From a virus (taxonomy: Duplodnaviria > Heunggongvirae > Uroviricota > Caudoviricetes), in IMG/VR virus record IMGVR_UViG_2529293240_000008, positions 1 through 16,973 of that record: DNA of 16,973 bases; one strand, written 5' to 3'. The translations under genes and the position numbers were made by a program. The first letter of the stretch is position 1; each line of letters opens with the position of its first letter. The notes under the pieces are model-generated. The model searched no databases, had not been told where the DNA came from, and was given only the letters and a program-made list of their open reading frames with translations. Below, piece by piece: positions 13,507-14,355 of the stretch.

Positions 13507-13706
13507 TGAGCGTCAAAATTCAAACGATACCGGAACTGCTTATCCAGACACGAGGTAATATGACCGAAGTTTCACGAATGCTGAACTGTAATCGCGCCAC
13601 GGTAAGAAAATATGCTGAAGATAAAGAGGGCAAAGGGCACGCCATTGTTGATGGTGTTCTGATTGTTCATCGTGGATGGGACAGGGGTAAAGACAGTGAT
13701 GCGTGA
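13506..13706 (+). CDS. ninH: NinH-like small DNA-binding protein
   Basis: ...[57 protein letters not shown]... closely parallels lambda NinH as recalled from memory; located just upstream of Q as in lambda. Confidence 0.75.
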
Positions 13707-14079
13707 TATTCAGCAGGTTCTTGAGCGCTGGGGCGCGTGGGTGGCTAATAATCATGAGGATGTGACCTGGTCGTCCATTGCTGCCGGTTTTAAGGGATTA
13801 ATCCCTTCAAAAGTAAAATCCCGCCCGCAATGCTGTGACGATGACGCGATGGTTATATGTGGGTGTATGGCCCGCCTTAACCGGAACAACAACGATCTAC
13901 ATGACTTGCTGGTTGACTACTACGTGTTTGGGATGACATTCATGACGCTGGCGCGGAAGCATGGATGCTCAGATGGTTATATAGGAAAGAAGCTACAAAA
14001 AGCCGAGGGGGTGGTGGAAGGAATGTTGATGATGTTGGGTGTCCGGTTAGAAATGGACAAATATATTGAACATCCCTGA
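13699..14079 (+). CDS. Late-gene antiterminator Q (phage 82 / QuuD-type, Phage_antitermQ-like)
   Basis: [60 protein letters not shown]...; ATG at 13699 inside the track ORF 13663..14079; overlaps the ninH 3' end. Confidence 0.8.
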
Positions 14080-14165
14080 TGGTAAGGGGCGACTTTCTAG
14101 AAAATATTTTACGTACGTAAAAAACGGGATATTCTGTTAAGAGTGGTTGCTTCGCCACACAGCTT

Positions 14166-14191
14166 AAACCCGCCTCCGGGCGGGTTTTTTA
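14166..14191 (+). terminator. Strong rho-independent terminator downstream of Q (tR'-like)
   Basis: CCCGCC-TCCG-GGCGGG perfect GC hairpin followed by TTTTTT. Confidence 0.75.
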
Positions 14192-14240
14192 TGCCTGAAA
14201 AACGGTACAGGACGTTAAACACGCTGGTGGTCAGATGAGT

Positions 14241-14269
14241 TTGCAGATGTGATGACATATGGTTATTAT
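14241..14269 (+). promoter_or_regulatory. Sigma70-like promoter of the tRNA cluster
   Basis: TTGCAG (14241-14246), 17-nt spacer, TATTAT (14264-14269), 9 bp upstream of the first tRNA. Confidence 0.55.
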
Positions 14270-14278
14270 TCTGCCTCC

Positions 14279-14355
14279 GGCCCTTTAGCTCAGTTGGTCA
14301 GAGCGAGCGACTCATAATCGCCAGGTCGCTGGTTCAAGTCCAGCAAGGGCCACCA
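14279..14355 (+). tRNA. tRNA with CAT anticodon (ileX/ileZ-like tRNA-Ile2; formally Met/Ile)
   Basis: Cloverleaf with 7-bp acceptor stem GGCCCTT/AAGGGCC, anticodon loop CTCATAA, T-loop TTCAAGT, encoded CCA. Confidence 0.85.

Follow-up and report, generated by a model that had tools for sequence, protein, structure and literature searches.

A Q antiterminator gene followed closely by a strong intrinsic terminator raises the question of where such a protein would act, and what it would control. This arrangement is found in a 16,973 nt stretch of tailed-phage DNA (Caudoviricetes; IMG/VR record IMGVR_UViG_2529293240_000008, positions 1 to 16,973), the whole of which is referred to here as the window. 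An intact open reading frame (ORF) for Q at 13699-14079 is succeeded by a GC-rich hairpin with a U-run, termed tR', which begins 87 nt after the Q stop codon, and then by four tRNA genes. An earlier note, made from the letters alone, recognised both the Q gene and the terminator but found no convincing late promoter with Q elements between them, and proposed that the promoter was non-canonical or the region remodelled, leaving Q with nothing to antiterminate into. Comparison with related phages instead makes it probable that a late-gene control cassette of the phage 21 family, in its 933W/H-19B/QuuD subclade, survives intact at 13699-14589 and has been orphaned by an insertion downstream. The features of the cassette, with amino acids abbreviated as aa, are as follows.

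13699-14079, + strand: Q antiterminator gene, 126 aa, Q21 family, 933W/QuuD subclade (ATG at 13699, TGA at 14079)
14107-14122, either strand: perfect 16 bp palindrome TTTTACGTACGTAAAA, with core TTTACG-TA-CGTAAA at 14108-14121; candidate Q-binding element
14108-14113, + strand: -35 hexamer TTTACG of the late promoter PR', separated by N16 from the -10; invariant in the alignment, and at the homologous position in Sakai Sp5 and Min27
14130-14135, + strand: -10 hexamer TATTCT of PR', with the T, A and final T of TAnnnT invariant (alignment A2); 7 nt 5' of the start deduced from Sakai
14135-14144, + strand: TG-n-TAAGAGT block, -10-like (TAAGAG/AAGAGT), with T43, G44, T46, A48 and T52/53 invariant (alignment A2); candidate sigma-dependent pause element (SDPE)
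14142 ± 1 nt, + strand: predicted PR' start, the bracketed A in TAAG[A]G, by homology to the start mapped in Sakai
14143-14158, + strand: small, weakly supported leader hairpin GUGGU-N6-GCCAC (+2 to +17), also predicted for the leaders of Sakai and DLP12
14166-14190, + strand: intrinsic terminator tR', 9 bp stem 14166-14174/14179-14187, loop UCCG, U-run 14185-14190 (U6)

A conserved late promoter, leader and terminator

Loci carrying this element were retrieved from genomes and viral contigs through the Q protein, giving 40 distinct variants that span eight or more enterobacterial genera (Escherichia/Shigella, Pantoea, Trabulsiella, Citrobacter, Xenorhabdus, Providencia, Proteus and Morganella), with Shiga toxin (Stx) phages and DLP12 included. 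Positions 14093-14190 of the window align with a PR'/leader/terminator element conserved 3' of the same type of Q in these other phages, and the 40 variants align with zero gaps from the palindrome through to approximately +22. The invariant positions (alignment A2) are the 12 core bases of the palindrome, the three specified bases of TAnnnT at the -10, and a T-G-n-T-A-A...T pattern around the start. Each locus has exactly one copy of the composite motif, 3' of Q and in the orientation of that gene, and a GC-rich hairpin with a T-run lies at the equivalent place in nearly all cassettes. Alignment with related phages, as the earlier note had proposed, therefore finds a conserved element where none had been recognised, which is the outcome that the note had named as refuting its reading.

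A guide to the position of the promoter is provided by the Stx phages. Downstream of Q in both Min27 and Sakai Sp5, TTTACG-N16-TATCAT (TATTCT in the window) is followed by TAAGAGTGGTT and then by a GC hairpin and T-run, and the Sakai PR' block is 78% identical to window positions 14101-14190. The register TTTACG-N16-TATTCT (14108-14135) is preferred to TTTTAC-N17-TATTCT (14107-14135), a candidate that had been noted earlier and set aside; the sequence is indeed present, but its dismissal does not hold, since on this comparison the candidate is the real late promoter PR', and its homologue has a mapped start. In Sakai, the primary PR' start was located by differential RNA sequencing (dRNA-seq), with the 3' end of tR' 258 nt away and an RNase E cut between GU and AUU at +173 (Sy et al., PMC7547250). 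The published coordinates are those of NC_002695.1, and the start was placed here only via these two internal distances, both of which converge on 646-647 of the retrieved Sakai Sp5 locus (L035), the A/G in TAAG[AG], 7 nt past TATCAT. These bases are homologous to 14142-14143 of the window, which puts the predicted PR' start at about 14142. The possibility that TGnTAAGAG forms an extended -10 of the promoter was discarded, since by either Sakai anchor the start falls inside TAAGAG.

From this start, the leader would run from 14142 to ~14190, a length of ~49 nt with the terminator at +25 to +49, rather than the ~30 nt suggested earlier. Leaders this short are usual in the family. The annotated record of phage 21, with its start at 1374 and a terminator spanning +3 to +50 that ends at 1423, likewise has a leader of ~50 nt. 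The window leader folds at -24.4 kcal/mol (z = -3.5; 1/200 shuffles as stable), in keeping with the strength that the earlier note had ascribed to the terminator. The small hairpin at +2 to +17 is not claimed as a real structure: 72% of cells in its alignment were paired, versus 71% in shuffles, with one covarying pair. A search against Rfam (E <= 1) gave meaningful scores for tRNAs only, with no family on the leader. In Sakai Sp5, a terminator-like hairpin with a T7 run lies at ~+22 to +49 (L035 667-694), 5' of the tR' at +258 that defines the small RNA StxS.

The TAAGAGT at the predicted start resembles the SDPE of phage 21, TAAGCTG, although it sits at -4 to +3, versus +2 to +8 in phage 21. 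Polymerase may pause here through contact of sigma with this invariant sequence. A different pause element, AGCTTA at 14161-14166 (+19 to +24), combined with a Q site at TG.TAAGAGTG, was considered and rejected, as Sakai and Min27, in which Q function is well established, have AGTCGA at that position.

Taken together, homology and the published mapping support the predicted positions of the promoter, start site, terminator and tRNA promoter, and suggest how the cassette would operate. Sigma-70 RNA polymerase would initiate at PR', using the -35 at 14108-14113, the -10 at 14130-14135 and the start at ~14142. Without Q, it would halt at 14166-14190 and release an RNA of ~49 nt; with Q, it would be modified near the promoter, pass first the terminator and then all four tRNA genes, and continue into the downstream DNA. 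Q would not, then, be stranded beside a meaningless terminator, which warns against taking short PR' leaders for decay.

The Q protein

The product of the Q gene gives a full-length match to PF06530 (E 4e-54), in which residues 1-118 correspond to 1-118 of the 118 profile positions and the score of 182 bits far exceeds the gathering cut-off of 26; its sole solved relative in the PDB is the Q protein of phage 21 (6P18/6JNX; E 3.9e-8, residues 8-85). Three Q families without obvious sequence similarity have been described: PF06530, which is that of Q21, PF06323, that of Q82, and PF03589, that of lambda Q (PMC9388147). PF06530 was the only Pfam match of the window Q, with none to PF06323, so the '82-type' part of its earlier description as an 82/QuuD-type protein is wrong. 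The QuuD part stands: the protein is 82% identical to QuuD of 434B/DLP12, 84% identical to Q of Min27 and 27% identical to Q21 (alignment A3), and identity to the Q proteins of 933W-type Stx phages is 84-87%. By sequence, it is a Q21-family antiterminator of the 933W/H-19B/QuuD subgroup, with predicted antitermination activity.

The same 126 aa ORF is annotated by RefSeq in a 99.7% identical prophage, and the protein is 100% identical in six retrieved loci (L004, L005 and L036-L039). The order of genes is typical, with ninH before Q and, in relatives, tRNA genes and then holin and lysozyme genes after it. An AlphaFold single-sequence model of Q had a mean pLDDT of 45 and was unusable for comparison with the fold of Q21, a sigma-R4-like helix-turn-loop-helix. 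A paQ-like CII site (TTGYN6TTGY) was searched for inside Q and none was found.

A palindrome as the candidate Q-binding site

The palindrome at 14107-14122, the left half of which doubles as the -35, is the only conserved element 5' of the -10. Across 30 diverse cassettes none of the 12 core bases varies, and the centre is either TA or AT, both of which are self-complementary. It occurs once per locus, always 3' of Q and on the Q strand, and no second copy was found elsewhere in the window. The Q21-type Q-binding element (QBE), two direct 8 bp repeats xxTGAGCA in the form TGAGCA-NN-TGAGCA, was absent from the window-type loci. Measured from TAAG, the palindrome lies 2-4 bp further upstream than the QBE of phage 21, and the half-sites are 8 bp apart in both.

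Evidence connecting this palindrome with Q comes from its distribution. A second clade of Q proteins, here called PPyecE-type and 49% identical to the window Q, has a different palindrome, GCGGTCCGC, at the equivalent position, its centre being the same distance (~24 bp) from TAAG as that of the window palindrome. Among the fetched loci, window-type Q genes are accompanied by the window palindrome at 88 loci and by GCGGTCCGC at 0, whereas PPyecE-type Q genes are accompanied by GCGGTCCGC at 36 loci and by the window palindrome at 0. This pairing persists where inserted genes of 0.8-2.9 kb part Q from the cassette, and the two types of cassette hardly differ in the -10, TAAGAGTGG, the leader or the terminator. 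These observations suggest that Q may bind the dyad-symmetric sequence at 14107-14122 overlapping the -35, a candidate site that would apply to the Q subclade controlling Stx2 production. A search of the accessible literature for the palindrome sequence or for a QBE of Stx phages found nothing relevant. The PPyecE-type loci comprise L120 (1085-1180), L124-L150, L177 and L187-L203; in those members of the clade that have a Q of 142 aa, its reading frame crosses the whole promoter and ends at a TGA inside TG-A-TAAGAG.

A wider proposal can be offered only tentatively, with rather less than even confidence. The 933W/H-19B/QuuD subclade, including the Q that drives Stx2, would load in a manner unlike phage 21, through a dyad site TTTACG-NN-CGTAAA over the -35 and a -10-like hold overlapping the start, with a nascent RNA of only ~9-11 nt; its sister clade would use GCGGTCCGC, specificity being swappable; and, separately, a small integrase island would enter the phage tRNA-Gly gene 3' of PR', bringing its cargo under Q. 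The cassette itself is ordinary; only the dyad, as a candidate site for Q, and the island lodged in a phage tRNA gene merit further work.

The tRNA genes and the disruption of the late operon

Beyond the terminator, the window contains the following features.

14240-14269, + strand: predicted sigma-70 promoter of the tRNA array, TTTGCA-N18-TATTAT, called by a consensus scanner; the homologous Sakai block (ATTGCA-N18-TATTAT) is 77% identical
14279-14511, + strand: tRNA-Ile2/Met (CAT), tRNA-Arg (TCT) and tRNA-Thr (TGT), by ARAGORN and Rfam
14515-14589, + strand: hybrid tRNA-Gly (TCC) with a phage 5' part and a glyU-type 3' end, forming the left attachment site (attL) of an integrase island (alignments A1 and A4)
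14704-15315, + strand: 5' 204 codons of a site-specific integrase with a DUF6538 N-terminus, cut by the insertion sequence (IS) IS2
15316-16646, - strand: IS2 (TnpB and TnpA models), followed by an IS1203/IS629-like fragment to the window end

A separate primary start driving the downstream tRNAs was found in Sakai by dRNA-seq (PMC7547250), and the promoter at 14240-14269 is homologous to that Sakai promoter. The view that the tRNAs have a promoter of their own and do not depend on Q is thereby upheld, yet the four genes, spanning 14279-14589, lie within the transcription unit that Q controls; the constitutive promoter would serve them in addition. The first tRNA (14279-14355) was called tRNA-Met (CAT) by ARAGORN and is annotated as tRNA-Ile by RefSeq in an identical gene; it is homologous to ileZ of Stx phages and is probably a lysidine-dependent tRNA-Ile2.

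It is at the last of these genes that the window departs from its relatives. Nine complete E. coli genomes are 99.7% identical to it over 13500-14589 and have holin, lysozyme and terminase genes beyond the tRNAs; in CFSAN029787 the tRNA genes are followed by those for holin, lysozyme, Rz, terminase and portal. Within the window, by contrast, no phage late genes follow the tRNAs, an integrase fragment and IS elements being found in their place, and to this extent there is indeed nothing left to antiterminate into. The crossover in tRNA-Gly falls within GGGTTCGATTCCC (14564-14576), in the T-arm; departure from the phage versions begins at 14577, and the 3' end and flank are typical of chromosomal glyU. 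The hybrid is mismatched in the T-stem and at acceptor pair 7-66 (alignment A1). The integrase fragment is 94% identical to an intact 544 aa integrase beside chromosomal glyU in E. coli 21AR0133. The phage tRNA-Gly gene would therefore have recombined, at a point in the T-arm, with the attL end of an integrase island specific for tRNA-Gly and usually resident at chromosomal glyU; the integrase of this island is broken by IS2. On the sequence evidence, the remodelling is an integrase-mediated event at the tRNA gene and not a change to the interval between Q and PR': the stretch from Q to the terminator, where the earlier note had placed remodelling or a non-canonical promoter, is conserved. On this reading, lysis and morphogenesis genes are absent from the window because the island joined the tRNA-Gly T-arm and IS2 broke the island integrase.

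An intact counterpart of this arrangement exists in E. coli EPSSH018, where an identical 75 nt hybrid tRNA-Gly lies in a Rac-like prophage (L204 20250-20324, 26620-26720). The island there is intact and 6.35 kb long, encoding an integrase, a DUF4145 protein and five small ORFs without a Pfam match. Past it come an attR-like imperfect core, the original phage tRNA 3' end, and then lysis and head genes, so that the island sits inside the Q-controlled late operon and in the same orientation. No attR (imperfect TTCGnnTCCC core, GCTGCCCGCTCCA and holin flank) is visible in the window. An island in a phage tRNA gene of the late operon can place its cargo under Q control or, as in the window, sever the operon.

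The left side of the window is also rich in IS elements. IS or transposase fragments (IS2, IS1203/IS629-like and others) lie on both sides of the phage DNA, at 18-335, 3318-4136 and 15316-16973, and only ~4173-14589 is colinear with the prophage of CFSAN029787. The prophage is accordingly truncated at both ends, and the element is a decayed prophage remnant.

Alternative explanations

Several observations weigh against an intact but orphaned cassette. PR' matches the promoter consensus at 8/12 positions, and a simple consensus scanner called neither PR' nor the terminator, so that both rest on comparison rather than on motif strength. The start site is carried over from a Sakai homologue of 78% identity and was mapped through internal distances. 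The candidate pause element overlaps the start, 5 bp nearer the -10 than in phage 21, and a pause this early is only putative. Because a 258 nt PR' transcript exists in Sakai, the homologous first hairpin is not a full block there; the published length points either to leakiness of this hairpin or to a failure to capture very short RNAs. The association of palindrome with Q clade could partly reflect linkage by descent. Finally, the window ends inside an IS element, placing any late genes further downstream out of view.

The weak consensus match of PR', uncalled by the scanner, and the lack of TGAGCA-type Q21 binding repeats would suit the view of the earlier note, that the late promoter or its qut site is missing or non-canonical, the region between Q and the terminator remodelled, and Q left with nothing to act on. 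This is barely credible given that 14093-14190 is ungapped and conserved in functional phages, both Stx phages of the 933W type and the viable 434B carrying the DLP12 region, that the start of the homologous Sakai promoter has been mapped, and that complete late operons are present in prophages sharing 99.7% identity with this region. It is also conceivable, although improbable, that the cassette does consist of PR' and tR' while the palindrome is an operator at which some other dimeric regulator, of phage or host, blocks access to the -35, and that Q reads TG-n-TAAGAGTG or the leader instead. Repressor operators do overlap the -35, the solved Q21 site is a direct rather than an inverted repeat, and the palindrome is no more invariant than the TG.TAAGAGT block. 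Yet it is the palindrome that switches with the Q clade, even across 0.8-2.9 kb of intervening genes, whereas TG.TAAGAGTGG and the leader stay constant across Q proteins that are 49% identical; moreover, its position relative to TAAG is nearly that of the Q21 QBE, and the window holds no other copy.

A further alternative concerns the junction in tRNA-Gly, which might have arisen by a chromosomal inversion or deletion between the prophage gene and a resident glyU or island attL, with the late genes now elsewhere or lost. The glyU-type flank of the junction, the abundance of IS elements on both sides of the window, as is typical of rearranged genomes, and the lack of a visible attR are all consistent with such an event. 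EPSSH018, however, combines the identical hybrid with a complete island, an attR-like repeat and lysis genes, demonstrating that islands of this kind do insert into a phage tRNA gene, and the crossover sits in the T-arm core used by tyrosine integrases. A chromosomal rearrangement is consequently regarded as unlikely, though deserving of more weight than either of the preceding alternatives, and insertion of the island into an otherwise intact cassette is preferred.

Comparison with known systems

Among the known systems is phage 21 (GenBank OL657228; PDB 6P18/6P19/6P1A and 6JNX), the Q protein of which shares the family PF06530. Its record has the order Q, -35 (1339-1344), QBE (1347-1362), -10 (1362-1367), start, SDPE (1375-1381), terminator end, tRNA-Asn, tRNA-Thr and holin. 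In both systems only tens of bp part the promoter from the stop codon of Q, the terminator ends ~50 nt past the start, and tRNA genes precede the lysis genes in the intact operon; both also have a protein-binding element between the -35 and -10, a candidate in the case of the window, and, where the transcript begins, a -10-like element of the TAAG type. They differ in that the window Q, at 27% identity, is 36 aa shorter, and in that phage 21 has direct repeats, ATTGAGCA and AATGAGCA, in place of the inverted repeat TTTACG-NN-CGTAAA. The -35 is upstream of the repeat in phage 21 and inside it in the window, and the TAAG elements are offset relative to the start as described above.

The Stx phages 933W, Sakai Sp5 and Sp15, and Min27, the source of the small RNA StxS, are considerably closer in their Q proteins. 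The PR' block they share with the window takes in the palindrome, the -10 and TAAGAGTGGTT as well as the first hairpin and T-run. The block around the tRNA promoter is the only other one with homology, and the tRNA array likewise begins with an ileZ-like gene. By contrast, the Stx phages have an extra ~200 nt and a second terminator at +258 that gives StxS. The ~330 nt between the PR' and tRNA-promoter blocks of Sakai, containing this second terminator and the 74 nt StxS segment, have no counterpart in the window. The window Q also lacks an 18 aa C-terminal tail, the set of tRNAs is different, and there are no stx genes.

DLP12 of E. coli K-12, the quuD region of which is also carried by 434B, has the same class of PR' cassette, with the near-identical leader GTTAAGAGTGGTTACTTCGTCACACAGCTTAAACCCGCC. 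Its cassette (L118 726-812) lies ~2.9 kb from quuD, past an nmpC::IS5 moron and directly 5' of the holin gene, whereas that of the window directly follows Q. The PR' cassette of the DLP12 region is unannotated in the record OL657227.

More distantly, the Q/PR'/6S RNA/tR' system of lambda shares the regulatory logic proposed for the window (a constitutive promoter, a promoter-proximal pause, Q loaded onto DNA within the promoter, and transcription past a terminator close by), but has a Q of the unrelated family PF03589, a 194 nt leader and no tRNAs. The integrase islands at glyU (the ETT2-side locus, actS-yqeG) share with the window the 94% identical integrase of 21AR0133 and the same glyU-type 3' end of the tRNA; they differ in their target, which in the window and EPSSH018 is a phage-borne tRNA-Gly within a late operon.

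Other features of the window

Immediately upstream of the cassette lies a further gene.

13503-13706, + strand: ninH, overlapping the Q start codon (PF06322, E 4e-26); named ninH in the CFSAN029787 prophage (L001)

Further upstream, colinearity with the prophage of CFSAN029787, which is otherwise 94-98% identical, breaks down over 7576-8910. A 524 aa ORF with a TTG start occupies 7324-8898; in its C-terminal half it resembles Rha/anti-repressor proteins and is a duplicate of the gene next to it at 8895-9755.

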